Of a DNA stretch of 23,338 nucleotides, positions 3,489-20,485 are shown one piece after another. The stretch lies in the NCBI GenBank assembly GCA_049320885.1, contig JBMORA010000019.1:1-23338 (forward strand). The letters run 5' to 3'. The notes beneath the pieces are model-generated. The model was not told the origin of the DNA, did not search any database, and saw nothing but the letters and a program-made list of their open reading frames with translations. The translations under genes were made by a program, and so were the position numbers. Source of the DNA: Thermodesulfobacteriota bacterium (GTDB lineage: Bacteria; Desulfobacterota; Desulfobacteria; Desulfobacterales; SURF-7). Positions within the stretch are counted from its first letter, which is position 1, and every line of letters begins with the position of its first letter.

Positions 3489-3647
3489 ATGGATAAATAT
3501 GTATGTCAGATCTGCGGGTATGTGTACGATCCCGAGGCCGGCGATCCGGACAACGGCGTGGCGCCGGGAACCTCCTTCGAGAATCTGCCGGACGACTGGC
3601 AGTGTCCCATATGCGGGGCCTCGAAAGACGATTTCGTCAAGGAATAG
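3489..3647 (+). CDS. rub: Rubredoxin
   Basis: 52 aa; CxxCGYVYDP...LPDDWxCPxCG; AAGGAG RBS before ATG 3489. Confidence 0.97.
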
Positions 3648-3760
3648 TTCGTGCAAGGTCGCGGCGCGGTCTGTTCGCCGCGCCTTCCCCCGGCCGACCG
3701 CCGTCGCGGTATCGGCCGGCGGGAGACAACCCTATGGATTCAGAATGACAAGGAAGGTGC

Positions 3761-4954
3761 ATGAAACCGATAGAAATTGCCAAGGGAATCTACGATGTGG
3801 GAGTAACAGATTGGAATATCCGGGATTTTCATGGATACTCCACCGACATGGGTACCACCTACAACGCTTTTTTATTGCTGGATGAGAAAATCACCCTGGT
3901 GGACACGGTGAAAAAGGAATTCAGCGATCAACTGCTGCAGAATATCGAACAGGTCATCGATCCGAAACAGATCGATCTGGTCATCAGCAACCATACGGAA
4001 ATGGACCATTCCGGCGCCCTTCCCCGGGTGATGCAGCGCATCGGCCGGGAAAAACCGGTTTATTGCTCCAAAATGGGCCTCAAGAACCTCGGCCTGCATT
4101 TCGGCAACGAATGGAATTACCGCGCGGTGGAAAACGGCGAGACGCTGAGCATCGGCCGGCGGACGCTCCAGTTCCTGGAAACCCGGATGCTCCACTGGCC
4201 GGACAGCATGTTCACGTATGTGCCGGAAGACAAGATCCTGTTTTCCAGCGACGCTTTCGGGCAGCATTACGCCGGTCCGGAAAAATTCGATGATCGTCTC
4301 GATGCGACCATCCTGCATCAGGCCAAGAAGTACTACGCCAACATCCTGCTGCTGTATTCCGCCAAAACCCAGAAACTGCTGGAAAAGGTGTCCGAGATGG
4401 GGCTGGAGATCCGGATGATCTGCCCGGATCATGGCATCATCTGGCGCAAGAACCCGGCGGCCATCATCCAGGCCTATGTCGACTGGAGCGCCCAGAAACC
4501 GGCCAAAAAAGCCATCGTGATCTATGACACCATGTGGCAGAGCACGGAAAAGATGGCGGCGGCCATTGGGCAGGGCATCAAGGAACATGGGGTGGACGTG
4601 AAACCGCTGCACCTGCGCAGAAACCATCGCAGCGACATCATGACCGACGTCCTGGACGCCAAAGCCATCGTCGTCGGTTCGCCCACGCTGAACAACTGCC
4701 TGTTCCCGACCATCAGTGATTTTCTGACCTATATGAAGGGCCTGAAACCGCGGAACAAAGTCGCCGCCGCCTTCGGGTCCTACGGCTGGAGCGGCGAGGC
4801 GGTGAAAATGATCAACCAGGAGCTGGAGGCCATGGAGTTCCGGCTCATCGATCCGGGATGCCGGATCCAGTATGTTCCGGATCCGGCGGGGATCGAGGCC
4901 TGCCTGGAGCTGGGCCGCAGGATCGGCGCCGCGGTGGTCTCCGAGGAAGCCTGA
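3761..4954 (+). CDS. fprA: Flavodiiron protein FprA / rubredoxin:oxygen oxidoreductase
   Basis: GTTYNA, HTEMDH, LHWPDSM, SDAFGQH, PDHG diiron motifs; flavodoxin domain with GSPTLN and FGSYGWSGE. Confidence 0.95.
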   Translation: MKPIEIAKGIYDVGVTDWNIRDFHGYSTDMGTTYNAFLLLDEKITLVDTVKKEFSDQLLQNIEQVIDPKQIDLVISNHTEMDHSGALPRVMQRIGREKPVYCSKMGLKNLGLHFGNEWNYRAVENGETLSIGRRTLQFLETRMLHWPDSMFTYVPEDKILFSSDAFGQHYAGPEKFDDRLDATILHQAKKYYANILLLYSAKTQKLLEKVSEMGLEIRMICPDHGIIWRKNPAAIIQAYVDWSAQKPAKKAIVIYDTMWQSTEKMAAAIGQGIKEHGVDVKPLHLRRNHRSDIMTDVLDAKAIVVGSPTLNNCLFPTISDFLTYMKGLKPRNKVAAAFGSYGWSGEAVKMINQELEAMEFRLIDPGCRIQYVPDPAGIEACLELGRRIGAAVVSEEA

Positions 4955-4965
4955 AAACATCCAAT

Positions 4966-5044
4966 CACCACCCACTGCGTCCGAGGCAGGGAGAACAAGG
5001 AGCAAACCTTCCCGGTCTCCCCAACTCGAGCGTGGCGGGTGGTG
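4966..5044. repeat. Intergenic long imperfect palindrome (REP-like)
   Basis: CACCACCC/GGGTGGTG outer stem, GGGAGA/TCTCCC and AAGG/CCTT inner stems; 5029-5043 matches 19850-19864 at 14/15 nt. Confidence 0.6.
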
Positions 5045-5076
5045 GAACAATCAAGATACGGGAAGTCGGGGGTTGA

Positions 5077-5286
5077 ATGGCCGAATCGGTGGCGTCAAAA
5101 GTTCCGGTGGTGGATCTCGATGAATGCATCCTCTGCGGGGTCTGCGTCGAGGTCTGTCCGGCGGTTTTCCGGGAAAACGATGCCGGGTACATCGAAGTGG
5201 CGGAGCTGGCCGAATATCCCGAGGCGGAAGTCGACGAGGCCGCGAAAAATTGTCCCAGGGACTGCATTCGCTGGGAAGACCGGTAG
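5077..5286 (+). CDS. Single-cluster [4Fe-4S]/[3Fe-4S] ferredoxin
   Basis: CILCGVCVEVCP plus distal CPRDCI; acidic, 69 aa. Confidence 0.9.
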   Translation: MAESVASKVPVVDLDECILCGVCVEVCPAVFRENDAGYIEVAELAEYPEAEVDEAAKNCPRDCIRWEDR

Positions 5287-5298
5287 GAAAGACACGGC

Positions 5299-5976
5299 TT
5301 GAAAACAGGCGCCGGAACATACCGCCGGCAGGTGGAAGCGAGCCTGCGCCGGCCCGGACTGGATGCCGTGGTGACGGACATGCTGCGGCTGGACGCCCGC
5401 AAAACCGTCGCCGCCCTCCTGTCGCTGCTCTGCCACCGGGAGGAGCTCCTTCGCTGGCGGGCGGTATCCGCCTTGGGGGCGGTGGTGGCCGCCCTGGCGG
5501 ACCGGGAGATGGAGGCCGCCAGGATCGTCATGCGGCGCTTCATGTGGTCCCTGAACGACGAGTCGGGCGGGATCGGCTGGGGAATTCCGGAATCCATGGG
5601 GGAGACCATGGCCAGGCAGGAAACCCTGGCCCGGGAATACCATCGCATCCTGATCTCCTACCTCCGGCCGGACGGCAATTTCATCGAATATGAAATGCTT
5701 CAGCGCGGCGTGTTGTGGGGTGTCGGGCGTCTGGCTCAGACCAGGGCCCATCTGCTCACGGATGCAGGGGAGCTGCTGCTGCCGTATTTCCGCTCGGCGG
5801 ATCCGGTCTGCCGGGGCCTTTCGGCCTGGGCCGCCGGAATGGTCGGGCCGGACGAAATCCGGCGATCCGCCGGAATACTTGCGGCAGACCACGCCGAGGT
5901 GAAACTCTATCTGGACGGCGAGCTGCGCCATCTGACCGTGGCCCGGCTGGCGGCGTCAGGAGGGACGGGCATATGA
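5299..5976 (+). CDS. DVU0298-family / HEAT-repeat-like protein
   Basis: 'MRRFMWSLNDESGGIGWGIPESMGE' signature; stop overlaps the next ATG; TTG start uncertain. Confidence 0.75.
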   Translation: MKTGAGTYRRQVEASLRRPGLDAVVTDMLRLDARKTVAALLSLLCHREELLRWRAVSALGAVVAALADREMEAARIVMRRFMWSLNDESGGIGWGIPESMGETMARQETLAREYHRILISYLRPDGNFIEYEMLQRGVLWGVGRLAQTRAHLLTDAGELLLPYFRSADPVCRGLSAWAAGMVGPDEIRRSAGILAADHAEVKLYLDGELRHLTVARLAASGGTGI

Positions 5977-7064
5977 ATATCGTTGCGCTGGTGCCTTCGC
6001 CCGATGCGATTCCGGTTCATTGGGGCTGGCTCCGGATTTTCCATCTGGCCACTTTTTTTCTCCATCTGCTGTGCATGAATGTGATGCTGGGCGGCAGCCT
6101 GATCGCCTGTTTCGAGGTTCTCGGCAATCCATCGGCGAAGCCCGGCGAAGGGGAATACCGGCGGACCCTGTTCCAGCACCTGCCGTTTGCCGCGGCCTTT
6201 GCCGTCAACGCCGGCGTGGCCCCGCTTCTGTTTCTCCAGACGCTTTACGGCAATCTGATATACACCAGCTCCATACTCATGGGCGCGTACTGGCTGTCGG
6301 TCATCGGGGCCCTGCTGATCGCCTACTACGGTGCCTATTTCCTGAAATACCGGTACGACGCCCTGGGGGCCTTGCGCTTGTTCCCGGCGATCCTGGTTCC
6401 CCTGCTGCTATTGTATATCGCCTTCGTGTTCACCAGCAACATGGCCCTGATGCAGCAACCGGCGGCCTGGGACGCCTATTTTACCAACCCCGGCGGGACG
6501 ATGCTGCCGGTATCCGATCCGACACTGCCGCCGCGGTTTTTCCATTTCGTTACCGCTTCCGTGGCCGTGGCCGGCTTGTTCACGGCCGCCTTCTGGTCCC
6601 TTGGAAAACGCAAGGCGACGGCGGCGGCGGAACGCCACGTCCGGCGGGGGATGCGCTATTATATCGGCGCAACCTGGGTGCAGATGGCCGTGGGGTTGTG
6701 GTTGCTGTGGAAACATCCCGGACCCGTCCGCGGTTTGATGCTGGGCGGTGATCCGCTTGTCACCGCCCTGTTGGTATTCGGCCTGCTCAGCGGGTTTGCG
6801 GGCATCGTCCTGGCATGGAAACGCCGGGTATGGGCAACGGTTTGGGTCACCCTGGCGTCCGTCGGGTTCATGGTCGGGTTGCGGGAAGCGGTGCGCACGG
6901 CTTACCTTGCGCCGTATTTCACGCTGGATTCCATTCCGGTTCAGCCCCAGTACGGCCCCCTGGCGGTCTTTATCCTGGCCCTCGCGGCGGGGGCCGCGGC
7001 CATCATCCATATGCTTCGTCTGAACTCCGGAACATCTTCCGGGAGAATGGACACGGAACCATGA
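5973..7064 (+). CDS. CydA-fold integral membrane protein (CydA'-like second subunit of a non-canonical cytochrome bd)
   Basis: 363 aa, about 9 hydrophobic segments; 'TFFLHLL..N..LGG', 'PRFFHFV.AS.AVAG' and 'LREAVR' parallel CydA helices I, V and VIII; ATGA overlaps at both ends, AGGAGGG upstream. Confidence 0.75.
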   Translation: MNIVALVPSPDAIPVHWGWLRIFHLATFFLHLLCMNVMLGGSLIACFEVLGNPSAKPGEGEYRRTLFQHLPFAAAFAVNAGVAPLLFLQTLYGNLIYTSSILMGAYWLSVIGALLIAYYGAYFLKYRYDALGALRLFPAILVPLLLLYIAFVFTSNMALMQQPAAWDAYFTNPGGTMLPVSDPTLPPRFFHFVTASVAVAGLFTAAFWSLGKRKATAAAERHVRRGMRYYIGATWVQMAVGLWLLWKHPGPVRGLMLGGDPLVTALLVFGLLSGFAGIVLAWKRRVWATVWVTLASVGFMVGLREAVRTAYLAPYFTLDSIPVQPQYGPLAVFILALAAGAAAIIHMLRLNSGTSSGRMDTEP

Positions 7065-9736
7065 ACGCGACCTGGTTGATTCAGTATCCGGTCTGGGACC
7101 TGGGCGTTTTCGGCGGCGGGTTGCTCATCGCCCTGGTGGCGACCGTCCATGTCTATGTTTCCCATTTCGCCGTGGGCGGAGGGTTTTTTCTGGTCCTGAC
7201 CGAACGCAAGGCCGTCCGGGAAAACTCCCAACCCCTGATGGACTATGTCCACCGCCACACCCGGTTTTTCCTCCTGCTGACCATGGTGTTCGGCGCCCTG
7301 ACCGGCGTGGGCATCTGGTTCACCATCTCCCTGCTGAACCCCACCGCCACCAGCCGGCTGATCCATATCTTCGTTTTTGCCTTCGCCACCGAATGGGTCT
7401 TTTTCCTGTGCGAGATCATCGCGTTGTTCATTTATTACCATCGCTTCGACAGCATGGAACGGAGCCGGCACCTGCGCATCGGCTGGCTGTACGCCCTGTT
7501 CGCCTTCCTGTCCCTGTTTGTCATCAACGGCATTGTCGCATTCATGCTGACCCCGGGGAAATGGCTCCACAGCGGGGATTTCTGGCATGGTTTCTTCAAC
7601 CCGACCTTCTGGCCGGCGCTGTTTTTCCGGACCTTCATGGCCTTGATGCTGGCCGGGATTTTCGGGCTCGTCACCGCGGTGTTCATCCGGCAGGAGGAGC
7701 TGCGCGCGACCCTGGTGCGGTACTGCGCCAAATGGCTGCTGCTGCCCTTCCCGGGGCTGGTGCTTTCGGCCTGGGGCTACATTGCCGTGTTGCCGGAACA
7801 ACAGGTTGCCATGATTTTCCAGCGTTCTCCGGAAATCCTGCCGTTTCTGAAATCCTTCGGGGTGATCGGCGGCCTGCTGTTCCTTGCGGGCTGTCTGGGG
7901 CTGACCCGGTTTGCCTCCCAACGCTGCCGGAAGATCCTTGCCTTCGGGTTGCTCCTGTTGGGGTTCGGTTTCATGGGCTCGTTCGAATGGATTCGGGAAG
8001 CCGGGCGCCGGCCGTTTATCCTGTATGGCCTTGCCTATTCGAATGCGGTGCTGGCCGAAGATCTGGAAGTCTTGTCGCAACAGGGGATTCTGGCCTCCAC
8101 CCGCTGGGCCCGATACCGGACCATCGGCAAAGACAACGAAATGGAAGCCGGCCGGGAGCTGTTTGCTTTCATGTGCGCCGGCTGCCATTCCATCGGCGGG
8201 CCCATGAACGACATCAAGGCCCTGACCCGGGATATCCCGGTTACGGGGCTGACGGCCATGCTGGCCGGCATGGGCAGGATCAACGACTATATGCCGCCGT
8301 TTCCCGGAACCGCTGCAGAGCGACAGGCCCTGGCGACGTATATCGCGGCGGGGCTGAACGGGAATGCCGAACCCCATGCCGGGGTGATGCCGGCGAAGGA
8401 GCGCGCCTTTGATCAGCCCCGCTTCGACGCCGGAAAGGATGCCCATGTGCTGCTGGCCTGGTGCGATCAGGGGGTGCAACTGTTGACGGATGCGGATGGT
8501 TTCTTCCGCCTGGCCGCACCGGGAGTGGACATCCACGCCCAGTTGATCCGGCGCGGGGAAACCCCGGAGATCGTCACCGAAGGCGCGGAGGTGACCTACC
8601 GGATCGAAGACGGCTTCCAGCAGCCGGCGGAGCGGGTCGATTATTGGCGTTTCGCCAGGACATCGGCTGGAAAGCCGCTGCCGCCGAACACCGGAGCGGC
8701 CGGTAAAACCGTCGCCGGCCGGATGGACATCCTGGAGGAAAGCACGGGATTCATCGCCCGGAAGGTTCCGGTGGTGCCCTACACCTCGTCCGGGGAGTTT
8801 CACCCATACCCGCTGATCACCGTCGAAGCCAGGGACAGCGACGACGGAAAGCTGCTGGCCGCGACCCGGTTCACGGCCGCCGTGTCCACGGAGCTGGGAT
8901 GCCGGCGCTGCCATGGTGGACCCTGGCGTTTCCAAAACACAACCGGCATTTCGGATCAAACCGCCCGCCATATTCTGTCCGTCCATGATCGCAGCAACCG
9001 CACCGATCTGTCCTCCCGGGCCGCCCGGGGGGCTCCCCCCTCCTGTCACGACTGTCATCCCTCCGGACAAGGCGCCGGAGACGGCCGGGGGGACCTCCTC
9101 AATCTTTCAGCGGCCATCCACGGGTTCCATGCCAATTACATGACCGGTGGTGATGCGGCCGACTCCTGCATGATCTGCCATCCGGATTCCCCGGAGGGCT
9201 TCACCCGCGGGTTCCGGGGGATCCACCATGCCCTGGGAATGGACTGCGGCAATTGTCATGGGCGCATGGAAGAGCATGCCGTCAGCCTGCTGCTGCCGGA
9301 ACTGGACGCCGCCAAAAAAGGCGCCTACCGGTTGATGAAACACTTGACGTCGGAAAATACCGGCGATATGAATGGGATAGCCGCGAGGAGACCCTGGGTC
9401 AACGAGCCGGATTGTCTGAACTGCCACCAGGATTTTCAGCCTCCGGAGACGGATCAGGCGGGACTCGATCAGTGGACCAAGGAAGAGGGCCTGCTTTTCC
9501 GTGCGCGAACCGATGAGGTCGGCCTGCGGTGTCCGGCCTGCCATGGGATCACCCACGCCGTTTACCCGGCCACGAATATTTTCGGGCAGGACCGCGACAA
9601 CATTCAACCGGTGCAGTATCAGGGCGAGCCGTATCCCATCGGCTCCAACCGGAATTGCAAGGTTTGTCATACAATCGATATGACGGAGGAAATTCATCAT
9701 CCGAACATGCTGGGGTTGTTCCGTAACACCCGGTAA
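7061..9736 (+). CDS. Cytochrome bd subunit I-like protein fused to c-type cytochrome domains (8 CxxCH)
   Basis: 891 aa. N-terminal CydA fold ('VHVYVSHFAVGG', 'GALTGVGIW', 'TEWVFFLCE', 'FFNPT', 'EWIREAGRRPF'), then CAGCH...MPPF, CRRCH, CHDCH, CMICH, CGNCH, CLNCH, CPACH, CKVCH. Start at ATG 7061 overlapping the upstream TGA. Confidence 0.9.
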   Translation: MNATWLIQYPVWDLGVFGGGLLIALVATVHVYVSHFAVGGGFFLVLTERKAVRENSQPLMDYVHRHTRFFLLLTMVFGALTGVGIWFTISLLNPTATSRLIHIFVFAFATEWVFFLCEIIALFIYYHRFDSMERSRHLRIGWLYALFAFLSLFVINGIVAFMLTPGKWLHSGDFWHGFFNPTFWPALFFRTFMALMLAGIFGLVTAVFIRQEELRATLVRYCAKWLLLPFPGLVLSAWGYIAVLPEQQVAMIFQRSPEILPFLKSFGVIGGLLFLAGCLGLTRFASQRCRKILAFGLLLLGFGFMGSFEWIREAGRRPFILYGLAYSNAVLAEDLEVLSQQGILASTRWARYRTIGKDNEMEAGRELFAFMCAGCHSIGGPMNDIKALTRDIPVTGLTAMLAGMGRINDYMPPFPGTAAERQALATYIAAGLNGNAEPHAGVMPAKERAFDQPRFDAGKDAHVLLAWCDQGVQLLTDADGFFRLAAPGVDIHAQLIRRGETPEIVTEGAEVTYRIEDGFQQPAERVDYWRFARTSAGKPLPPNTGAAGKTVAGRMDILEESTGFIARKVPVVPYTSSGEFHPYPLITVEARDSDDGKLLAATRFTAAVSTELGCRRCHGGPWRFQNTTGISDQTARHILSVHDRSNRTDLSSRAARGAPPSCHDCHPSGQGAGDGRGDLLNLSAAIHGFHANYMTGGDAADSCMICHPDSPEGFTRGFRGIHHALGMDCGNCHGRMEEHAVSLLLPELDAAKKGAYRLMKHLTSENTGDMNGIAARRPWVNEPDCLNCHQDFQPPETDQAGLDQWTKEEGLLFRARTDEVGLRCPACHGITHAVYPATNIFGQDRDNIQPVQYQGEPYPIGSNRNCKVCHTIDMTEEIHHPNMLGLFRNTR

Positions 9737-9754: not shown

Positions 9755-11239
9755 ATGGCGAGCAGAAGTTTCCGTTTTCGGGCGGCGATACGAATGGCGC
9801 CGGTGTTGTTGTTGCTGCAAATTTCCCTGGCGGCCGGGGAGGGAAAATACGATTATTCCAGCATCCGGGAGGAATATTCCGAGGCTGTTTGTCTGCTGGA
9901 ACGCGCCGATCAAGGCGGCGGTCCCCGGGACGAGGCCTCCCGGTGCCTCCTGGATCGCCCCGTCGATCTCCGGGAAGCCATCGGCATCGCCATTCAAAAC
10001 AACCCGGACAGCCAGATGGCCATGACCCGGATCCGGCAGACCGAAGCCGCCCTCGAAATGTCCCGGGCCGCCTTTTATCCGGCCCTGGGCATCTACACGG
10101 AATACCTCCAGGGCGACGCGCCTTCCGCCTATCTGTTCAAAACCATCGACCAGCGCTCCCTGCCACCCGGAACGGATTTCAACGATCCGGGCTGGTTCCG
10201 GAACATGGAAACCGGCCTGGTGGGGAAAATCAACCTGTTCAACGGCGGCAGGGACTGGCTCCAGAACCGGATGGCCGCCACCCAGGTGACCATTTCCCGG
10301 CTGGACCGGTTGGCGGTGGAGAATTCGCTGGCGGCGGCGGTGATCTCGGCATATTATGATTATCTGGCGGCCCAGGATTTCATCAAGATCGCCGAGGAAT
10401 CGGTGGCCACGGTCCAGTCCCAGCTCGATATCATGACGGCGCGATACCGGGCGGGCGGGGCCTTGAAATCGGATATTCTGTCGCTGGAAGTGCGGCTGGC
10501 CCGGGCCCGGGAAGAGGTGCTCATCAGCCGGAACCGGTCCCAGATGGCCATGGCGGCCCTGAGCAATCTCCTGGGCCTCCGTCCCGACCGGGAAATCCGC
10601 TTCCACAAGTCAACCCTGGGAAACATCGCCGTGCCGGAGGATTACGCCAGCGGGGTTGTCCAGGCCCTGGAGAACAGACCCGAGCTGAAGAAGGTCCGGG
10701 AACAGCTCAGCCAGTCCCGCATGGCCGTCGATCTGGCCAGGGCCGAGTATCTGCCCACCCTGGATCTCCAGGGGAAATATTATCACGATGATCCGGATTT
10801 CGCTTATGACCAGGATCGCCAGAACTGGACCGTGGGAATGGTGCTGAACTGGTATTTCTTTACCGGTCTGTCCACCCGGGCCGCCCACCGCCAATCCTCG
10901 GCCCGGCTGGAGGAGATTCTGGCCGGTGACCGCAAGAATGTCCTTTCAATTCAATTGGATGTAAAGAATGCCTACCTGAAGCTGGAGGAAGCCCGGGCGC
11001 GATTGACGGTGGCAGAAAAGAGCGTCGTGAGTGCCGAGGAGTCCCTGGCCCTGGTGAAAGTCCAATTCGAAGGCGGTTCGGCCACCATCACGCGGTATCT
11101 GGAGGCGGAATTGGCCCGGAATTCGGCGCGCATCAGTTCCACCACGGCTTTTTTTGACCGGGAAAAGGCCCTGGCCGATATCGGCAGGGCCGTGGGGTTG
11201 CTGGGCCCCATGTTCCGGCATGACCGGGAAGGTGGATGA
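9755..11239 (+). CDS. TolC-family outer membrane efflux protein
   Basis: Signal-peptide-like N-terminus; 'AIQNNPD', 'AAFYP', 'NLFNGG', 'ALENRPEL', 'AEYLPTL' duplicated OEP pattern; start may be GTG 9746. Confidence 0.9.
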   Translation: MASRSFRFRAAIRMAPVLLLLQISLAAGEGKYDYSSIREEYSEAVCLLERADQGGGPRDEASRCLLDRPVDLREAIGIAIQNNPDSQMAMTRIRQTEAALEMSRAAFYPALGIYTEYLQGDAPSAYLFKTIDQRSLPPGTDFNDPGWFRNMETGLVGKINLFNGGRDWLQNRMAATQVTISRLDRLAVENSLAAAVISAYYDYLAAQDFIKIAEESVATVQSQLDIMTARYRAGGALKSDILSLEVRLARAREEVLISRNRSQMAMAALSNLLGLRPDREIRFHKSTLGNIAVPEDYASGVVQALENRPELKKVREQLSQSRMAVDLARAEYLPTLDLQGKYYHDDPDFAYDQDRQNWTVGMVLNWYFFTGLSTRAAHRQSSARLEEILAGDRKNVLSIQLDVKNAYLKLEEARARLTVAEKSVVSAEESLALVKVQFEGGSATITRYLEAELARNSARISSTTAFFDREKALADIGRAVGLLGPMFRHDREGG

Positions 11240-11243
11240 GGCC

Positions 11244-11846
11244 ATGCTGTTCATCGAAAACACGCCGCCGAAAGCCTCGCGACCGAGAATCCCCATGGTA
11301 TTCATCGATGGGCAGCGCCGGCAGCACGCCCGGTACCAGATCCGGGGGTGCGCCCGGGCCGTTTTTTTCCAGCAGCGGATTCTCCTGGCCAAATCCCCGA
11401 GGATCATCCGGCTGGGCCCGATCATCGACATCGGCCGGGGAGGGCTGGCGGTGGAATATCTGGAGTCCAGATCCCGTTCGGGGGATTTCGGGGAACTGTC
11501 CGTGGAGATGCCGGACAAAAGCCTGGTTCTGTATCGCTTCCCGGTTCAAACCATTGCGGATTATCCCATCGCTGAGATGAATTCCGGTCAGTTGATCCGG
11601 CGGCGGTGCCTTCAATTTCTTCATTTGAATCAACACCAGCTCTTTCGCCTGGGAAAGTTCATCCGGATTCACACCTGCGGCCCGATGATCGACCGCCGCA
11701 GCGGCCGGGACCGCCGTTATCCCCAGGGACCGGAAGATCCGTTCATCGCCATACCCGGCTGGTGCTACGACAAGGGGCGTCGCCGCAAGCCGGATCGCCG
11801 GAAAAACGCGGTCAGCGGAACCGGAAAGGCGCCTCTCATCCGGTAG
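11244..11846 (+). CDS. PilZ-domain protein
   Basis: 'QRRQHARY' (RxxxR) and 'IIDIGRGGL' (D/NxSxxG-like, S replaced by G); C-terminal DRRSGRDRR...PDRR repeats. Start uncertain. Confidence 0.75.
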   Translation: MLFIENTPPKASRPRIPMVFIDGQRRQHARYQIRGCARAVFFQQRILLAKSPRIIRLGPIIDIGRGGLAVEYLESRSRSGDFGELSVEMPDKSLVLYRFPVQTIADYPIAEMNSGQLIRRRCLQFLHLNQHQLFRLGKFIRIHTCGPMIDRRSGRDRRYPQGPEDPFIAIPGWCYDKGRRRKPDRRKNAVSGTGKAPLIR

Positions 11847-11860
11847 TGATGGAGGATTCC

Positions 11861-12187
11861 ATGCCGCCTGATTCCCCGGCGCAGGATTCAGCGCCCGGCC
11901 CGGCCGGGAACCCTTGTCCGGCGGAAACCGGCTCCGACAGAACCCCCATTGTCTTTTCCCGTCTGGACTCGCATGAATATCATAACGGCTGGGCCTTGGC
12001 CTGCGACGCCGGCGGCATGAGCTTCGAATCCCGGACGGCCCTGCCTCCCGGCGCCCGTATTGTCATAAAAATGATGAATTATTGCATGATAATGGAAGCG
12101 GAAGTGACCTGGTGCCGGGAAGATATGCCGGCCAATCCCGGTCTGTTCCGCATGGGCGCCCGGTTTGACCGGAATGTTCTTGCCTGA
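11861..12187 (+). CDS. Degenerate PilZ-domain protein
   Basis: 'GGMSFES..ALPPG..I.I...AEVTWCR....FRMGARF' parallels the next gene; lacks RxxxR; GGAGG RBS at 11851-11855. Confidence 0.65.
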   Translation: MPPDSPAQDSAPGPAGNPCPAETGSDRTPIVFSRLDSHEYHNGWALACDAGGMSFESRTALPPGARIVIKMMNYCMIMEAEVTWCREDMPANPGLFRMGARFDRNVLA

Positions 12188-12240
12188 CCGGCCGGGCAAT
12201 GCAGTCACCTGTCAACACCATATATTGTATCATTTTTTTC

Positions 12241-12269
12241 TTGACACACAAAGAAGACTGGACTACGGT
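12241..12269 (+). promoter_or_regulatory. Putative sigma70 promoter of the third PilZ gene
   Basis: TTGACA-N17-TACGGT with an AT-rich upstream tract. Confidence 0.4.
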
Positions 12270-12341
12270 CCCGGTAACCGGTCTGCCAGGTTCCGGATGG
12301 TGGTGACAGGGAGATTTCTACAGTAACGGAGACTTACCAAG

Positions 12342-12701
12342 ATGTACGAAGATGGAATTTGGAGAAACGGAAAGCATCCGTCCCCGTCTGCCTCCGAGCA
12401 GCGGGCATACGTCCGCAAATCCCATTCCGCTCCGATTCTATATGAGTTTTACAACACCAACAATTATTACCAGGCGGTCATGCGCAACCACAGCATGGGC
12501 GGCATGTGCTTCGAGGCGGAATTCGCTCTGCCTAAAGGCGTTGAAATCTACATAAAAATTCCGAACCATCAGCCGGGTTCCAACGGACCCGAGGCCCGTA
12601 AGGGCTACCGGGCCGAGGTCCGGTGGTGCCGCAGAAAGAACGGCACCAATCCGCCGAGCTACGAAGTGGGCGTCAATTATTTCGAACCGGTGCTGTTCTA
12701 A
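12342..12701 (+). CDS. PilZ-domain protein with intact c-di-GMP motifs
   Basis: 'EQRAYVR' (RxxxR), 'NHSMGG' (D/NxSxxG), 'AEVRWCR', 'YEVGVNY'. Confidence 0.85.
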   Translation: MYEDGIWRNGKHPSPSASEQRAYVRKSHSAPILYEFYNTNNYYQAVMRNHSMGGMCFEAEFALPKGVEIYIKIPNHQPGSNGPEARKGYRAEVRWCRRKNGTNPPSYEVGVNYFEPVLF

Positions 12702-12718
12702 GAACGCCAACCATCCCG

Positions 12719-14584
12719 TCATTTCTGCTCAAACGGAATGGTCAGGGCGTACACCCCGTATTCCAGTTTGGCTTTCAACGGTCCCGCGCCTTTTTCGAAC
12801 ACTTTCATCATGGACGTGTTGGAGGAGAGCACATCGGCGGTGAATCCGTGGATGCCCCTTTCCTTGGCCAGGCGCATCAGCATCTGGTACATGTAGCTAG
12901 CGATCCCCAGGCCCTGATAGGCCTCGTCCACTACGAAGGCGACATCCGCGAACGGCGGGTTTCCGTTGTCCTTTACGAAACGCGCTTCCGCGATGATGTG
13001 CCCCTGGCCGGCATCCCCCACCAGACCCACGATGGACATGACTTTGCGGTAGTCCACATTGACGTATTTCTGCATTTTGTTGTGGGGCATGGTTTTGATG
13101 GAAGAAAAATACCGATAGTAGACCGCTTCGTCGGAAAACCGGTAAAACAGGCGGCGCATTTCCTCCTCATCGGAAGGCTTGATGGCGCGGAAACGAACTT
13201 CGACTCCGTTTTTAAAGGTATGCCGGGCGGCCACGTCGGCCGGATACAGGCTGGCCGCTTCGGCCAGGAAAATCTGGTCTTCGTACAGGATTTTTTCCGC
13301 TTTGGCCTGGGCCACGAGTTCGGCCCGGTCATCCGGATGGGCGATTTCGATCAATGCCTGGGCGCGTTCCCGGATGGTACGGCCGGATAAATTCGCCACG
13401 CCATATTCGGTGACCACCATGTCGACGGATTCCCTCAGGCCGAACTGGTTGGGGAATTGTTCCACTGTCAGGACGATATTGGCCGATTTTTTCAGATTCC
13501 GGCTGGGAAGGGCGAAGATGGTGAGACCGCCCTCGGATTGCTGGGCGCCGGTGACGAAATCGATGGCTTCCCCCGGGCTGGCGGCGACATTCCCCTTGCC
13601 GGTATGCAGGGCGATCCGGCCGGAAAGGTCCACCTTGCGGGCCGGCAATACCAGGGTGAACCGGGGATTGCGGCTGATCTGGGTGGAATCGAACACCTTG
13701 TCGGTGCTTTGAAATTCCACCAGGGGGTTGCGGTCCAGCCAGCACATCAGCTCCCTGCTGCCGAAGGCATAGGAGGCGACGGATTTCCCTCTCCAGATGG
13801 ATTTGTTGCGGTTGGTTACGGCTCCGCTTTTCACGAGGTCCATGAGGGCATCGGTGAAAAAGGGCGTATGGATGCCGAGATGGCGCTTGTTCGCCAGATG
13901 AGGGCTCAGGGCCTCGAACAAGGGGCCGATGGAAAAGGAGACGCAGCTGCCGTCCTCGATTTCCCGGGCCACGTTGGCGGCGACCTGATCGAAGACCTCG
14001 TCCACCGGCCACCTGTCGAAATAAATCGGCTCCTCGGTGGATTCGATGAGCATATCGAAGCAGGAGACCGGGACAAAGGTGTCGCCGAAGGTCTGGGGGA
14101 TCTGGCGGTTGATTTCCCCCACCACCAGGCAGGCCTGCTCCATGGCGTGATGGGCCGCATCCACGGAAACCCCGAGGCTGCAATAACCGGCCTCGTTGGG
14201 GGCGGTCACCTGAATGAAGGCGACATCCAGGGGAATGGTCCGGGAGGCGATGAGCTGCGGAATCCGGGAAAAACGGCTGGGAATCAGGTCCACCCGCCCG
14301 GCGACGATGGCTTCGCTGGCCACCCAGCCGGAAAAGAAGGTTTTCAGGCGGTATTTCTGCGTGCTGAGTTCCTGAATGGAAATGGCGTCACCGAGGCTCA
14401 CCAGCTGAATCAGGGAAAGATCCTGGAGATTGGGGGCGGTGGAGGCCATCAGATGTTTGACCAGGGTTCTGGGTTCCGCCAGGCCGGTGCCGATGAAAAT
14501 ACTCATGCCCGGTTCGATTTTTTCCATCACGGCGTCGGGTGTAACAATTATCCGTTTCCAGTCGGTTGGATTCTGGTTGTTCAA
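12719..14584 (-). CDS. Acetyl-CoA hydrolase/transferase fused to a C-terminal GNAT domain
   Basis: 'LDVAFIQV', 'GYCSLGVSVD', 'TDALMDLVKSGAVTN', 'VVTEYGVANL.G....ERAQALIEIAHPDDR'; GNAT 'VAFVVDEAYQGLGIAS'. TTG start with GGGAGA upstream. Confidence 0.93.
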   Translation of the reverse strand: MNNQNPTDWKRIIVTPDAVMEKIEPGMSIFIGTGLAEPRTLVKHLMASTAPNLQDLSLIQLVSLGDAISIQELSTQKYRLKTFFSGWVASEAIVAGRVDLIPSRFSRIPQLIASRTIPLDVAFIQVTAPNEAGYCSLGVSVDAAHHAMEQACLVVGEINRQIPQTFGDTFVPVSCFDMLIESTEEPIYFDRWPVDEVFDQVAANVAREIEDGSCVSFSIGPLFEALSPHLANKRHLGIHTPFFTDALMDLVKSGAVTNRNKSIWRGKSVASYAFGSRELMCWLDRNPLVEFQSTDKVFDSTQISRNPRFTLVLPARKVDLSGRIALHTGKGNVAASPGEAIDFVTGAQQSEGGLTIFALPSRNLKKSANIVLTVEQFPNQFGLRESVDMVVTEYGVANLSGRTIRERAQALIEIAHPDDRAELVAQAKAEKILYEDQIFLAEAASLYPADVAARHTFKNGVEVRFRAIKPSDEEEMRRLFYRFSDEAVYYRYFSSIKTMPHNKMQKYVNVDYRKVMSIVGLVGDAGQGHIIAEARFVKDNGNPPFADVAFVVDEAYQGLGIASYMYQMLMRLAKERGIHGFTADVLSSNTSMMKVFEKGAGPLKAKLEYGVYALTIPFEQK

Positions 14585-14597
14585 TGGGGTGTCTCCC

Positions 14598-14753
14598 TCA
14601 TGGGTTTGGCTGTTTCCGTTCGTCGGCCTTTTTTTTGTCTGTCACCTGACAGGCGTCCTTCATTCAGGTGGAAATGCCGAACCTGGGAAGAATGTAGGCC
14701 TGGAGCACATACCAGACGGCGATAAACAGGATCAGGGCGATGAGTTCCTTCAT
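14598..14753 (-). CDS. Candidate 51-aa single-TM selenoprotein (in-frame TGA at 14664-14666)
   Basis: AGGAGG RBS (14759-14764) 5 nt before ATG; reads MKELIALILFIAVWYVLQAYILPRFGIST-U-MKDACQVTDKKKADERKQPNP; SECIS-like hairpin 11 nt after the TGA. Without recoding it is a 29-aa membrane peptide. Confidence 0.7.
14639..14652 (-). promoter_or_regulatory. Putative bacterial SECIS hairpin
   Basis: CTGTC-AGGT-GACAG; stem begins 11 nt and loop 16 nt after the UGA, with a G in the first two loop positions. Confidence 0.55.
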
Positions 14754-14800
14754 GGTTTCCTCCTGTTGCCGGGAATGTCCCGGAAAAAATGGTCTTGTCC

Positions 14801-14830
14801 ATCATACAGGCTGGCGGGTAGGCTTTTCAA
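14801..14830 (-). promoter_or_regulatory. Putative sigma70 promoter for the small ORF and the CoA-transferase/GNAT gene
   Basis: Minus strand TTGAAA (14830-14825)-N18-TATGAT (14806-14801). Confidence 0.45.
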
Positions 14831-15685: not shown

Positions 15686-16432
15686 TCAAGCGGCGTTCCG
15701 GTCCAGGATTTTCCCCCGACAGGCGATGACCACCTCCTGGTGGGGAATCTGTCCGCCGGCGGCCGCAAGGGCCTTGCGGACCATCATGGGCAGCCCCCCG
15801 CAGCAGGGCACTTCCATGAAAACGGAGGTGATGCTGCGCGGCTTCGCGGTCCGGAAGATGGCGGTGAATTTGTCCATATAGGCCTCCGCGTCGTCGAATT
15901 TGGGGCAGCCCATCAGGACCACCTTGCCTTTCAGAAAGTCCCGGTGCAGCGTGGGGTAGGCCACCGCCGCGCAATCCGCCAGGATCAGCAGGTCGGCGTT
16001 TTTGAGAAAGGGCGCATCGGGCGGCACTAGCCGGATCTGAACCGGCCAGTGGGACAGGGCCGAGGCTTCGCCGGCCACCTGTTGCGGTGCATTGGCCATC
16101 TGGCAGGGCGTCCGGGGCTCAAAGGACTGGATTTGGGCGGAAGGACAGCCGCAGGCCATGGTTTTGGCCGGTTCGGGCGCGGTCACGGAATGGGCCAAAT
16201 GTTCCTCCACGGCTTCCTCGTCGAATTCATCCGCCTCCCGCTCGATGACCCGGAGGGCGCCGTTGGGGCATTCCCCCAGGCAGGCGCCCAGGCCGTCACA
16301 GAAACGGTCCTCGATCACCCTGGCCTTGCCGTCGATGACCTGAATGGCGCCTTCGGCGCAGGCCGGCACGCACTGGCCGCAACCGTCGCAGCGTTCGTCG
16401 TCGATCTCAATTATTTTTCTCATGATTTTCAT
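15686..16432 (-). CDS. 2x[4Fe-4S] ferredoxin-domain protein of the type that accompanies hcp
   Basis: CDGCGQCVPAC and CDGLGACLGECP; 'CGCP', 'WPVQIRLV', 'ADC', 'GCPKFD', 'MEVPCCGG'; AAGGAGG RBS before ATG 16432. Confidence 0.9.
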   Translation of the reverse strand: MKIMRKIIEIDDERCDGCGQCVPACAEGAIQVIDGKARVIEDRFCDGLGACLGECPNGALRVIEREADEFDEEAVEEHLAHSVTAPEPAKTMACGCPSAQIQSFEPRTPCQMANAPQQVAGEASALSHWPVQIRLVPPDAPFLKNADLLILADCAAVAYPTLHRDFLKGKVVLMGCPKFDDAEAYMDKFTAIFRTAKPRSITSVFMEVPCCGGLPMMVRKALAAAGGQIPHQEVVIACRGKILDRNAA

Positions 16433-16463
16433 GGGTTTTTCCTCCTTGTCGGGTCGCAACGAA

Positions 16464-17201
16464 TCAGGCCGGCACTCCGGCCAGCCGTTTGGCGGCTTCT
16501 TCCCTGCCGGTCGCGGTCAGGAAAGAGTCGGTGAGAATGCGGCTCAGTTCATCCGGAGGAAGCGGTTCCTCCTTGTGGCGTTCTTCCAGATTGGTGAGCA
16601 GATCCGCGTCGTGGAGGGCCTTGAAATTGACGGTCTCCTCCGGCCGGGGGTGATGATGATGGGCGACGATGTCGCACACCTCCGCGATCAGTTCGGGTTT
16701 CGCGCCCAGTTTTTCCAAAATCGACCGGGCGATGGGCGGGCCTTCCTGTTCCTGGAAGGCCGCTGCCGTGCTGTTGTGCTGGCGCCGGGCCTCGTGGATG
16801 CCGATATCGTGCAGATACGCGGCCGCAAGGATCACGGCGAGGTTGCCGCCTTCGCGTTTGCCGATGGCTTCGGCATGGCGGGCCACCCGCATGGCATGGC
16901 CGATGCGCTTGAAATCGGTATGAAAATATTTCTTCATTTCCACCGCCACCCGGTCTTTCAGCAGGTTTTCCTTCTGGGCGATGAGTTCCGGGGGCAAATT
17001 GCCGATGCATTGCTCGGCGAATTCACAGTAGGAGGCGCAGCCGAAATCCATGTTGGGGTTCAGGAACCGGTGGCCGCAATTGGGACATCTCCTGGCCGGG
17101 TCGTCCTTGAAAAATTCCACCACGCTGCTGCATTTGGGGCAATTGGATTCGAAGATGGCCCCTTTTTTCCAGTATCGGCTGTCCTGTCCCGGGCATTTCA
17201 T
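16464..17201 (-). CDS. HD-domain phosphohydrolase with N-terminal Cys-rich/Zn-ribbon region
   Basis: MKCPGQD, CPKC, CPNC, GCASYC..AEQC; H..RV, 'AAYLHDIG', 'HHH', 'DAD'; GGAGG RBS before ATG 17201. Confidence 0.85.
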   Translation of the reverse strand: MKCPGQDSRYWKKGAIFESNCPKCSSVVEFFKDDPARRCPNCGHRFLNPNMDFGCASYCEFAEQCIGNLPPELIAQKENLLKDRVAVEMKKYFHTDFKRIGHAMRVARHAEAIGKREGGNLAVILAAAYLHDIGIHEARRQHNSTAAAFQEQEGPPIARSILEKLGAKPELIAEVCDIVAHHHHPRPEETVNFKALHDADLLTNLEERHKEEPLPPDELSRILTDSFLTATGREEAAKRLAGVPA

Positions 17202-17229
17202 GACGAACCTCCAAATCAAGGTTTTTTCA

Positions 17230-17260
17230 GGGTGTCCGCCCCTGTACCGGCCGGACACCC
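17230..17260. other. Intergenic stem-loop downstream of hcp
   Basis: 9-bp perfect IR GGGTGTCCG/CGGACACCC; no U-tract follows in the hcp direction, so more likely a stability or processing hairpin than a terminator. Confidence 0.45.
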
Positions 17261-17298
17261 CGTAAGCTAATCACCAAAGCTTTCCCTGTCATCCCGGC

Positions 17299-18927
17299 CT
17301 ATCCCAGGATGGCCTTCAGATCCTCATCCGGCGTCTTGATGGGCATGATGTTGAAATTCTTCACCAGCACATCCAGCACGTTGGGCGTGATGAAGGCCGG
17401 CAGGGAGGGCCCCAGACGGATGTTCTTGATGCCCAGGTGCAGCAGGCTCAGCAGGATGGCGCAGGCTTTCTGCTCATACCAGGACAGCACCATGGAAAGG
17501 GGCAGGTCGTTCACTCCGCAGTTGAAGGCGTTGGCCAGGGCCACGGCGATCTGCACCGCCGAATAGGCGTCGTTGCACTGCCCGATATCCAGGAGCCGCG
17601 GGATCCCGCCGATGTCGCCGAGTTCCTGGTCGAAGAACCGGAACTTGCCGCAGGCCAGGGTCAGCACCACGCAATCCCTGGGGATTTTTTCCACCAGCTC
17701 CGTATAGTAGTTGCGTCCGGGTTTGGCCCCGTCGCAGCCGGCCACCAGGAAGAAATGCCGGATGGCCTTGCTCTTCACGGCGTCGATGACCTGCCCGGCC
17801 ACGCCCAGAACCGCGTTGCGGGCAAAGCCCACCATGACGGATTTGCCGGCCTCGTCCGCCGGGAAGCCCGGCATGGAAAGGGCTTTATCAATGACCGGGG
17901 TGAAATCCTTGTTCGCTATATGGGCGACACCCGGCCAACCCACCAGTCCGGTGGTGAAGATATGATCCTGATAACTGTCCTTCGGCTTCTGAATACAGTT
18001 GGTGGTCATCAGAATGGCGCCGGGGAAGGCCTCGAATTCCTTGGCCTGATTCTGCCAGGCCGTGCCGTAATGGCCATGGAAATGCGGATATTTTTTCAGT
18101 TCCGGATACCCGTGGCAGGGGAGCATTTCCCCATGGGTGTAAACAGTGATGCCTTTGCCGGCGCTCTGTTTCAGGATCAGTTCCAGATCCTTCAGGTCAT
18201 GGCCCGACACCAGGATGGCCTTGCCCTTCTTGGCCCCCAGGGGCACGGCCGTGGGCACCGGATGGCCGTATGCGCCGGTATTGGCGGCATCCAGCAATTC
18301 CATGGCCCGCAGGTTGGTGGCTCCGCATTTCAGGGCCAGGCCCACCAGGTCGTTGACTCCCAGGGAGTTGTTGAGGGTGGCGGCCAGGCCTTCGTAAATG
18401 AAGGCGAACACCGCCGGGTCGCTTTTGCCCAGAATCGCCGCATGATCCGCGTAGGCCGCGACGCCCTTGATGCCGTAAACCAGGAGTTCCCGCAACGCGC
18501 GGATATCCGCATTCAGGGTGGGATCGGCCATGACGCCGACTTTTTCCCCCTGGGCCACCAGCCCGGCGGTGGTGGTCTCCGGCTGGAAGGCCACGGCGGC
18601 TTCCGTGAAACGGGTGTTGCCGCCGGCTTTACCGACTTTATCCGTCAGGGCTTTCCGGGCGTCGACGCTTTTACGGATGAGCGAAACGAAGCGGTCCGGA
18701 TCGAAATCGACATTGGTCAGGGTGGAAAAAATCGCCTCGCAGGCCAGCCGGTCGACGGCCTCATCCACGACGCCCACCCGTCTGCCCTCCAGGGCCACCA
18801 CGGAAAGCCCCTTGACGACATACAGCAGGGCATCCTGCAAAGCCGCCACTTCCGGTTGTTTGCCGCATACGCCGATTTTCGTGCATCCTTCGCCTTTGGC
18901 CGTTTGTTCGCATTGATAACAAAACAT
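17299..18927 (-). CDS. hcp: Hybrid cluster protein (hydroxylamine/NO reductase)
   Basis: MFCYQCEQT...C...GVCGK, SGHDL, YTHGEMLP, MTTNC, GCDG, LACGK, DIGQCNDAYS, SWYEQK; 542 aa; AAGGAG RBS. Confidence 0.98.
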   Translation of the reverse strand: MFCYQCEQTAKGEGCTKIGVCGKQPEVAALQDALLYVVKGLSVVALEGRRVGVVDEAVDRLACEAIFSTLTNVDFDPDRFVSLIRKSVDARKALTDKVGKAGGNTRFTEAAVAFQPETTTAGLVAQGEKVGVMADPTLNADIRALRELLVYGIKGVAAYADHAAILGKSDPAVFAFIYEGLAATLNNSLGVNDLVGLALKCGATNLRAMELLDAANTGAYGHPVPTAVPLGAKKGKAILVSGHDLKDLELILKQSAGKGITVYTHGEMLPCHGYPELKKYPHFHGHYGTAWQNQAKEFEAFPGAILMTTNCIQKPKDSYQDHIFTTGLVGWPGVAHIANKDFTPVIDKALSMPGFPADEAGKSVMVGFARNAVLGVAGQVIDAVKSKAIRHFFLVAGCDGAKPGRNYYTELVEKIPRDCVVLTLACGKFRFFDQELGDIGGIPRLLDIGQCNDAYSAVQIAVALANAFNCGVNDLPLSMVLSWYEQKACAILLSLLHLGIKNIRLGPSLPAFITPNVLDVLVKNFNIMPIKTPDEDLKAILG

Positions 18928-19020
18928 GGTTTCTCTCCTTTCGATGGCTATGTTGTCCGTTTTGAATGGTTGTTGCCGTTCTTGTTGACCCCTTTCTACC
19001 GGCAAAACCGTCGCATGACC

Positions 19021-19034
19021 TTGACTTAGGTCAA
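19021..19034. promoter_or_regulatory. HcpR (FNR-like) binding site
   Basis: Perfect TTGAC-N4-GTCAA between divergent hcp and the Crp/Fnr gene. Confidence 0.8.
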
Positions 19035-19084
19035 ATCCGGGTGGTAATGCATATTTTTTTGAAAAAATAATGAGGAGACCCTCC

Positions 19085-19786
19085 ATGAAATCCATTGCCG
19101 AGATTCTGACCGCCACTTCCCTGTTCCAGGGGCTGCCGGAGGAACAGCTCGCCGATATCGCCTCCATCGCGGTAAATCGTGAATACCAGCGGGATGAAAT
19201 GATTTTCAGCGAGGGCGACGACGGGGACGGATTCTATGTCGTGGCCGACGGGCTCATCAAAGTATTCAAGGTATCCACGGAAGGCAAGGAACAGATCCTT
19301 CATATTTTCAGCGGCGGCGAACCCGTCGGGGAAGTGCCGGTTTTTTCCGGCCGGAAATTCCCGGCCTCGGCCCTGGCCCTCAAAAGGAGCCGGATGCTGT
19401 TTTTCCCGCGAAAAGCCTTTGTGGATTTGATTTCCGCCCACCCGTCGCTGGCCTTGAACATGCTGGCCGTTTTGGCCATGCGGCTGCGCCAGTTCACGGT
19501 GCAGATCGAGAACCTCTCCCTCAAGGAGGTGCCGGGGCGGCTGGCCGGCTACCTGCTGTATCTTTCGGAGGAGCAGGGCGGAAGTAGAACCGTCAGTCTT
19601 TCCATTTCAAAGGGCCAGCTGGCGAGTCTGCTGGGCACCATTCCGGAGACCCTGTCGCGGATCCTTGCGAAAATGACTTCCCAGGACCTGATCCACGTCA
19701 AGGGCCGGGATATCCGCCTGCTTGACCTGGAAGGTCTGGCGGAGCTGTCCGAAACCGGAAAAATGGCGGAAGACAAGACATCATAA
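19085..19786 (+). CDS. hcpR: Crp/Fnr-family regulator HcpR
   Basis: cNMP-fold 'IFSEGD..DGFY.V..G.IKVFK.S.EGKEQIL', HTH 'LASLLGTIPETLSR'; divergent from hcp; GAGGAG RBS. Confidence 0.9.
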   Translation: MKSIAEILTATSLFQGLPEEQLADIASIAVNREYQRDEMIFSEGDDGDGFYVVADGLIKVFKVSTEGKEQILHIFSGGEPVGEVPVFSGRKFPASALALKRSRMLFFPRKAFVDLISAHPSLALNMLAVLAMRLRQFTVQIENLSLKEVPGRLAGYLLYLSEEQGGSRTVSLSISKGQLASLLGTIPETLSRILAKMTSQDLIHVKGRDIRLLDLEGLAELSETGKMAEDKTS

Positions 19787-19810
19787 CGATAAAAATCCCT
19801 TGCCCAATTC

Positions 19811-20000
19811 TCCGGCGCAGCCGGCAACTTCGTGCTCTTCGTGTCCTTCAGCGTAGCGGGTGGTTGAAAAAGAAATTGACCTGATTTGGAGATTATTTTT
19901 AACCACGAAGAACACGAAGGACACGAAGAAAGACAAAAGTGTTTTTCCGGCGCAGCCGGTAACTTCGTGTTCTTCGTGCCCTTCAGCGCAGCGGGTGGTT
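19811..20000. repeat. REP-like composite repeat: two 55-nt direct copies flanking a complementary arm
   Basis: 19811-19865 and 19946-20000 are 51/55 identical; 19901-19928 (AACCACGAAGAACACGAAGGACACGAAG) is complementary to their CTTCGTG triplet arrays; lies between convergent genes. Confidence 0.85.
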
Positions 20001-20008
20001 TGAACAGT

Positions 20009-20485
20009 TTATTTGGGCAGGGCCACCAGCTTTTTGCTCAGGGTGCGCACATGTCCCATTTCTTCCTTGATGACCTGATCGATGCGATTCCGGCCCATTT
20101 TTTCCGGCACCATGTCCCGCAGCCCCAGGTAGAAGACGATGGAGTCCTTTTCCGCCTCGATGGCGGATTTCAGGATCTCCCGGATGGAATCCACCGGCAT
20201 GTCCTTTTTATAGAAGACGCGGATGTCCACCAGGGCGCGGAGGTATTGGCCGGCCTCGCCGTCCGGGTCGAAGACCGTGGATTGTTTTTCTTTCTCGGAA
20301 AGTTCTTTTTTGATGGCGGTGAACGTTTTTTCGTGATCATCCTCCATGGCCGCCAGTTCCAGGAGGAGTTTCTTGGCGTCCGCATCCGTCATTTTCTGGG
20401 CGGATGCGCGGTAAAATCCCGCGCCGTTGCGCTCCATCTGCACAGCCATTTCCATGATGTCGGAGGCGTTGAAATCGTAACTCAT
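20009..20485 (-). CDS. Ferritin-like / rubrerythrin diiron-domain protein (no rubredoxin domain)
   Basis: 'A..MERNG..FY', 'LA.MEDDH', 'AIEAEKDSIVFY', 'EEMGH' - duplicated E...ExxH pattern. Confidence 0.88.
   Translation of the reverse strand: MSYDFNASDIMEMAVQMERNGAGFYRASAQKMTDADAKKLLLELAAMEDDHEKTFTAIKKELSEKEKQSTVFDPDGEAGQYLRALVDIRVFYKKDMPVDSIREILKSAIEAEKDSIVFYLGLRDMVPEKMGRNRIDQVIKEEMGHVRTLSKKLVALPK

Follow-up and report, generated by a model that had tools for sequence, protein, structure and literature searches.

A small single-pass membrane protein with a predicted selenocysteine, widespread in Desulfobacterota and with some relatives near sulfur and thiol stress genes

We analyzed a stretch of 23,338 nucleotides (hereafter, the window; contig JBMORA010000019.1) from a Thermodesulfobacteriota bacterium, whose minus strand carries a short reading frame (14598..14753) with an in-frame TGA. 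The frame is preceded by the Shine-Dalgarno sequence AGGAGG (14759..14764), 5 nt upstream of the ATG at 14753, and reading through the TGA at codon 30 (14664..14666, predicted Sec30), which is exchanged for Cys codons among the homologues, gives a product of 51 aa ending at the TGA at 14600-14598. This product would comprise a single hydrophobic helix (residues 2-25, 14679..14750) with conserved positions W/Y14, Q/N18, L22 and P23, a P-x-x-G-x-x-T motif just before the predicted Sec (14667..14687), the residues M-K-D-A-C right after it, which include Cys35 (14649..14651) in a U-x4-C arrangement, and a poorly conserved Lys-rich tail (14601..14648), probably cytoplasmic according to the positive-inside rule. 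A hairpin of the bacterial SECIS type, with a 5 bp stem and the loop AGGU (14639..14652), starts 11 nt after the TGA, its loop beginning 16 nt past the UGA. The ribosome binding site, the start codon, the membrane helix, the internal TGA followed by an open frame to 14598 and the position of the hairpin are all as the original prediction had described them. That prediction had also held that the gene had escaped the ORF track; gene callers often call the ORF and stop at the TGA, the protein database contains the exact 29-aa stub, and this stub was the sole match of a word-index protein search.

Upstream of the gene, a sigma-70-like promoter (TTGAAA, 18 nt, TATGAT; 14801..14830, minus strand) is recognizable by consensus match only, with 10 of 12 consensus positions, and it is the sole such site in 700 bp (0.4 +/- 0.7 in shuffled sequences). 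Under a loose pattern, SD-like words precede 120 of 125 homologues. Downstream, 14 nt past the distal stop, starts a gene for an acetyl-CoA hydrolase/transferase-GNAT fusion (12719..14584, minus strand). A contig from an RNA library coincides with 14361-14754 with zero differences, confirms the TGA and bridges both genes, a match that proves neither transcription nor strand; runs X2 and X3 did not cover the small gene. The two genes are probably co-transcribed. The fusion gene is no family-wide partner, as the same neighbour was present in only 4 of 123 downstream ORFs.

The nature of codon 30 was followed through the relatives of the gene. Among 128 distinct loci from genomes it is TGA in 127 and Cys (TGT) in one, two more loci with a variant motif, both TGA by eye, having been excluded from this count; the 73 distinct loci from metagenomes, drawn from the best 80 of 534 matches, divide into 38 with TGA and 35 with Cys; and the 19 loci from the phylum of genome G688 divide into 13 with TGA and 6 with Cys, the latter including a re-fetch of the single Cys gene among the genome loci. 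TAA or TAG occupies this codon in none of the 220 loci, even though the searches treat all stops alike, and the distal stop is TGA in 51 cases, TAA in 50 and TAG in 24. The frame stays open for 10 codons past the TGA in 127 of 127 genes, a figure that, like the share of loci with the second Cys, is somewhat inflated because the loci were recruited by a similarity that includes the tail. In a representative protein library, the 151 proteins considered (the best 150 plus one earlier match) end exactly before this codon in 92 cases, and have Cys in 28, Trp in 21 and other residues in 7, with 3 unparsed; the Trp residues probably arose where gene callers applied a different code to a TGA. Re-initiation at the ATG that follows the TGA was rejected as the cause of the downstream conservation, since this codon is also GTC, CTG, GGT or TTC.

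The published model of bacterial SECIS elements comprises a loop of 3-9 nt, a stem of 4-16 bp, a distance of 16-37 nt from the UGA, a G within the first two loop positions and a free energy of at most -7.5 kcal/mol (PMC13188914). The hairpin in the window matches it in loop, stem, G and spacing; the G that the original prediction placed at the start of the apical loop is in fact the second loop base, a position that the model allows. The folding energy is -6.2 kcal/mol over 42 nt and -8.6 kcal/mol over 57 nt, the latter including a second small hairpin. Taken alone, this hairpin lies within the range expected by chance (-6.2 kcal/mol, z -0.5); the case for it comes from comparison. In an alignment of 30 genes, which are related to each other and were scored on the structure taken from the window, 97% of the stem cells pair and 8 cells are changed on both sides, which 0 of 500 shuffles reach. 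Compared with synonymous recodings, native sequences fold more stably, with a mean z of -2.0 across 124 genes, and a SECIS-type hairpin follows 115 of the 127 TGA genes from genomes. In the metagenome set (best 80 of 534) it follows 30 of 38 TGA genes versus 9 of 35 Cys genes, kin in these counts not being independent. Distant members have a different stem 5-6 nt further 3', and the Cys is still kept. A role of the hairpin as a terminator was rejected, as no T-run lies behind it.

The host genome possesses selA, two selB over the cut-off, selD with an in-frame TGA of its own and two tRNA-Sec genes (selC). One of its two selB lies directly after a tRNA-Sec (C1:315730-317766, C12:2364-2461 and C27:42821-44713 of genome G000), and two selB are also present in several relatives (G308, G418, G436 and G649). 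Across the phylum, selA was found in 371 of 401 genomes. Eleven genomes have the small gene and were negative for selA, and all 10 of those examined have selB over the cut-off. The four genomes of family f97 (G308, G385, G418 and G349), which are 61-79% complete, lack selA at E<=1e-60, and selB and the TGA gene are present in all three genomes examined for them; the absence of selA may be due to incompleteness or to a divergent Sec synthase. In the phylum of G688, 11 of 13 genomes with the TGA form have selB. It was not found in the other two, G719 and G749, nor in the TGA-form genome G689. Neither G719 nor G749 showed a convincing tRNA-Sec (loci L234 and L238), G719 having contigs of more than 2 Mb and a hairpin that is kept by eye. 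The contig of G689, labelled Margulisbacteria (L047), displays the order thioredoxin, small gene, PAS/sigma-54 that is typical of Desulfobacula, and it is possibly mis-binned. The Cys-form genome G688 has no selB, and three other Cys-form genomes gave partial selB matches over the cut-off, which indicates that the Cys form is not restricted to genomes devoid of Sec.

Regarding the protein, AlphaFold2 predicts one helix over residues 2-25, with pLDDT 90-95 over residues 1-20, and a low-confidence coil for the remainder. A thioredoxin fold with UxxC or CxxU does not appear in this model, in which a single helix and coil go together with an x4 spacing. The median 19-residue hydropathy of the helix across the homologues is 2.4, and column counts reveal one conserved helix face. 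Column counts over 201 loci give 100% for the P, 100% for the G and 99% for the T of the P-x-x-G-x-x-T motif, values that are partly due to construction because the loci were anchored on it. The U-x4-C pair proposed in the original prediction is the rule and not a universal trait: the second Cys, at +5 from the Sec/Cys codon, is present in 96% of the 201 loci and missing from one subfamily, among the loci of the phylum of G688. This loss suggests that what is essential is the first Sec/Cys and not the pair. The Cys35 equivalent is retained where the hairpin takes another register and also in Cys-form genes. Lys and Arg average 4.7 after the helix versus 0.6 before it, with a weaker bias in the metagenome set (best 80 of 534), from which we infer a tail facing the cytoplasm. 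Pfam and NCBIfam returned no family at a meaningful E-value for the protein or for 26 Cys homologues, the PDB search gave no match (best E 0.22), and for a Cys homologue the ESM Atlas returned a single cluster, unnamed, at 0.89, which we consider a lead only.

Taken together, these results make it very probable that the gene product is a translated, single-pass membrane selenoprotein of 51 aa, a conclusion drawn from sequence comparison. The original prediction had also pointed to small hypothetical proteins with Cys in the position of the TGA; such proteins exist and carry C-x4-C. Its proposed searches yielded Cys-for-TGA homologues, sequence and hairpin conservation past the TGA, and selA, selB, selC and selD in the host, while the codon itself was TGA or Cys in every one of the 220 loci. 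That the TGA might be a true stop, leaving a 29-aa membrane peptide and a conserved hairpin with another role, appears highly improbable to us. The 29-aa form called in databases, the weakness of the single hairpin in the window and the three TGA genes in genomes without detected selB would agree with it; against it stand the lack of TAA and TAG at a codon whose distal counterpart uses all three stops, the Cys aligned there, the 10-codon open frame in all 127 genes, a hairpin whose presence tracks the TGA form and the selB found in all 10 selA-negative phylum genomes examined.

The family is widespread. With the read-through product as a query, 271 of 301 genomes of the order match at E<=1 and 255 (about 85%, counted by eye) at E<=1e-5, and all 150 of the 150 matches listed carry the TGA. 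Profile searches matched 181 of 401 genomes of the phylum (about 45%) at E<=1e-3 and 19 of 151 genomes of the phylum of G688 (Myxococcales record), and the representative protein library gave 874 matches at E<=1e-3. The named Cys forms are "hypothetical" proteins, one of them from Planctomycetota; no viral relatives could be confirmed. Peng et al. 2016 list an "Unknown (Geobacter lovleyi)" selenoprotein in 5 organisms in their Table S3 (PMC5029168), and this entry is probably the same family, although the identity rests on the name because the table gives no sequence. The sequences of the "Geobacter lovleyi" hypothetical selenoprotein family predicted earlier, six of them in Data S1, display, as judged by eye, the same helix, the P-x-x-G-x-x-T-U-x4-C motif and the charged tail, those in the Desulfosarcina section nearly matching the family consensus. 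In contrast with that count of 5 organisms, the spread described here is far wider. The passages on these predictions available to us mention no function, topology or context. Neither the family name nor the motif was found in Table S1 of deep-Sep, term searches of the main texts of a 2022 review (PMC9312934) and of the GOS paper (PMC2398784) did not return the family name, and the 119-family table of a 2026 review (PMC13188914) holds no matching entry; BSepDB or Haft and Tolstoy 2025 may list the family. The listings from our literature searches showed no paper on its function. Thus, in the literature examined, the family is already predicted as a selenoprotein, unnamed and uncharacterised. 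The present analysis adds how widespread it is, that HMM libraries and the 2026 table lack it, and a first functional lead from gene context. Since the family has no HMM and is stored as a 29-aa stub, counts of the selenoproteins of sulfate reducers probably miss one in most genomes.

In Desulfobacterota the small gene is mobile among neighbourhoods, with two recurring settings. In the first, an ECF sigma factor lies directly downstream in 24 of the 128 loci, in most cases together with a zf-HC2 anti-sigma (22 of 87 order loci). An ECF sigma and/or zf-HC2 gene is nearby in 24/87 order loci, 18/73 metagenome loci (best 80 of 534) and 6/19 loci of the phylum of G688, and the sigmas of these three groups are only 31-38% identical. 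The anti-sigma beside the small gene matches zf-HC2, with RsrA below the cut-off. In all 24 ECF-linked order loci the ATG of the sigma gene lies 37-46 nt past the UGA, so that it falls within the read-through tail just 3' of the hairpin; the region is A-rich and shows no clear SD by eye. Of the 24 ECF-linked loci, 18 have an ECF-type promoter 5' of the small gene, versus 0 of the 103 others, the pattern having been defined on the same loci that it counts and loosened after a stricter first version caught 3 of 24. In the second setting, mostly in Desulfobacula, a gene for a PAS/sigma-54 activator is downstream in 19 loci, 13 of which have a sigma-54 promoter. Among the 87 order loci, 18 have a thioredoxin gene right beside the small gene. 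In eight Desulfobacula loci (L062, L069, L071, L074, L076, L092, L093 and L101), a divergent run of thioredoxin, AcsV-like (corrinoid reactivation protein) and ACR3-like (transporter) genes is found upstream, opposite the small gene.

The metagenome loci (best 80 of 534) show another context, 37 of 73 having a rhodanese, MBL-fold dioxygenase-like, YgaP-TM, TauE, SQR or YeeE gene within 3 kb. In 300 random windows of the host genome, sulfur genes occurred in 2 and ECF/zf-HC2 in 0; the enrichment in sulfur genes is overstated, because the queries came from these loci themselves and a different organism served as the control. Elsewhere, this context was seen in 1/87 order, 2/41 phylum and 1/19 phylum-of-G688 loci. 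Some loci (L154, L156 and L225) have the run ArsR, rhodanese, MBL-rhodanese, small gene, TauE, SQR, with enzyme labels that fall below NCBIfam cut-offs. DUF302 is nearby in 8 of the 19 loci of the phylum of G688 and is fused to the Cys form in 4, 3 of which are near-identical; according to the passages of PMC5248467 consulted, DUF302 genes occur within some sox operons. Arsenic and metal genes (ACR3, ArsR, HMA ATPase) also recur nearby. In the window, the neighbours of the small gene are the CoA transferase and an esterase, and a persulfide operon does not surround it. In the host genome, queries with the anti-sigma, YgaP-TM and TauE found no match, and those with the ECF sigma gave matches of only 31-33%.

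On the basis of these contexts we tentatively propose that the protein is tethered to the membrane, faces the cytoplasm and uses its Sec/Cys to carry or sense sulfane sulfur. SelB would bind the hairpin 11 nt past the UGA and insert Sec30; the helix would anchor the protein in the inner membrane, with the short N-terminus outside; and P-x-x-G-x-x-T may end the helix and present Sec at the cytoplasmic face. The chemistry of rhodanese, persulfide dioxygenase or SQR would then supply Sec30 (Cys30 in relatives) with sulfane sulfur or with an oxidising equivalent, Cys35 would resolve the adduct as a selenenyl-sulfide and a thioredoxin or DUF302-type partner would reset the pair, all these chemical steps being suggested by gene context. 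The small protein would be part of a response to sulfur or thiol stress that in many cases is under the control of an ECF sigma and a zinc anti-sigma. Against a sulfur role speak the sulfur context, which comes almost wholly from one set of related metagenome loci (best 80 of 534), as well as the neighbours of the gene in the window, the missing matches in the host genome, the arsenic and metal neighbours elsewhere, the three selB-less TGA genomes and the subfamily without the second Cys.

A general thiol-redox relay or sensor at the membrane, in which U-x4-C passes oxidation to a zinc anti-sigma, another regulator or a membrane enzyme without any special link to sulfane sulfur, seems somewhat unlikely to us. 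It would account for the ECF/zf-HC2 link that recurs in three groups of loci with such divergent sigmas, for an anti-sigma that is RsrA-like, if below the cut-off, for the adjacent thioredoxin and for the sigma-54 promoter at 13 of the 19 loci with a PAS/sigma-54 activator; yet most Desulfobacterota copies, including that of the window, have no such neighbour, the host genome has no anti-sigma match, and the first place in an autoregulated operon suits a regulon member as well as a sensor. We regard as unlikely a metal- or metalloid-binding accessory peptide, whose Sec30 and Cys35 would bind Cu, Hg, As or an Fe-S cluster in the service of an efflux pump or a respiratory complex. Scattered ACR3, ArsR, MerR and HMA ATPase genes, RND efflux (HlyD, 8/73) and the cytochrome bd-I-like protein (5/73) near metagenome loci (best 80 of 534), and the conserved helix face are in line with it, but the gene is not followed by any one transporter or oxidase, a subfamily has lost the second Cys and sulfur-handling genes are commoner as neighbours.

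The position of the sigma start, 37-46 nt past the UGA in 24 of 24 ECF-linked order loci, could also be explained by a selenium-sensing leader ORF, in which UGA decoding sets the translation of the next gene and the peptide itself is minor. As a general explanation this is very unlikely, considering that Cys forms retain the same protein motif, that the downstream gene is highly variable and often on the opposite strand, that the next gene in the window begins past the distal stop and that the sigma overlap may be one inherited event; in the ECF loci, a leader effect could be a second layer. Returning to the sulfane sulfur carrier or sensor, its fullest version is a membrane tether of about 50 residues that carries or senses sulfane sulfur on Sec and feeds an ECF/zinc anti-sigma circuit, with the UGA gating the sigma in some Desulfobacterales, a combination that we consider rather doubtful as a whole. 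If true, UGA decoding would tie a stress response to selenium supply in these Desulfobacterales, and the family would be among the most widespread selenoproteins of Desulfobacterota. Its presence in about 85% of the order and 45% of the phylum sample compares with 5 organisms in 2016, if the family is the same, and a role in sulfur or thiol stress, drawn from the gene context, is the first function for the family that can be put to a test.

Most bacterial selenoproteins are thioredoxin-like or enzyme subunits, and among them a minimal Sec tethered to the membrane would be unusual. MgrB, the FeoB-associated Cys-rich protein and the eukaryotic SELENOK and SELENOS share with it a single membrane helix and a short tail that bears a reactive Cys or Sec. 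None of these analogues was matched in sequence in Pfam, NCBIfam or PDB, and here, in contrast, the predicted Sec adjoins the membrane and is not at the C-terminus. Among regulatory systems, SigR/RsrA resembles the ECF-linked loci in that a zf-HC2 anti-sigma, RsrA-like below the cut-off, is a neighbour and the small gene lies within the same transcription unit, the tie here being one of gene order and promoter alone. RsrA is not known to have a membrane component. The persulfide and sulfide detoxification operons (BigR-Blh-TauE; SQR-PDO-rhodanese) are comparable in that relatives of the small gene sit among ArsR/BigR-like, MBL-rhodanese, TauE and SQR-like genes. The window is without such an operon. 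The parts of PMC5823870 available to us describe the content of the BigR operon (BigR-Blh-TauE) with no small membrane Sec or Cys peptide in it.

Some other genes of the window deserve mention. About 5 kb from the small gene and on the opposite strand, 7061-9736 (plus strand) encodes a cytochrome bd-I-like membrane domain fused to a multiheme cytochrome c, which is 33% identical over 445 aa to the product of a gene downstream of Cys-form relatives in L180; a cytochrome bd-I-like gene is near Cys-form relatives in 5 of 73 metagenome loci (best 80 of 534). The segments 2682-5976 and 15686-20485 constitute an oxidative/nitrosative stress region with DVU0772, a rubredoxin-like ORF (by eye), a flavodiiron protein, DVU0298, a ferredoxin-domain protein, a hybrid cluster protein, a Crp/Fnr-like regulator (by eye) and a ferritin-like protein. 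Finally, small PilZ-domain ORFs are clustered at 11154-12701, convergent on the CoA transferase-GNAT gene, and PilZ-like ORFs also occur after this gene in three other loci (L037, L043 and L084).
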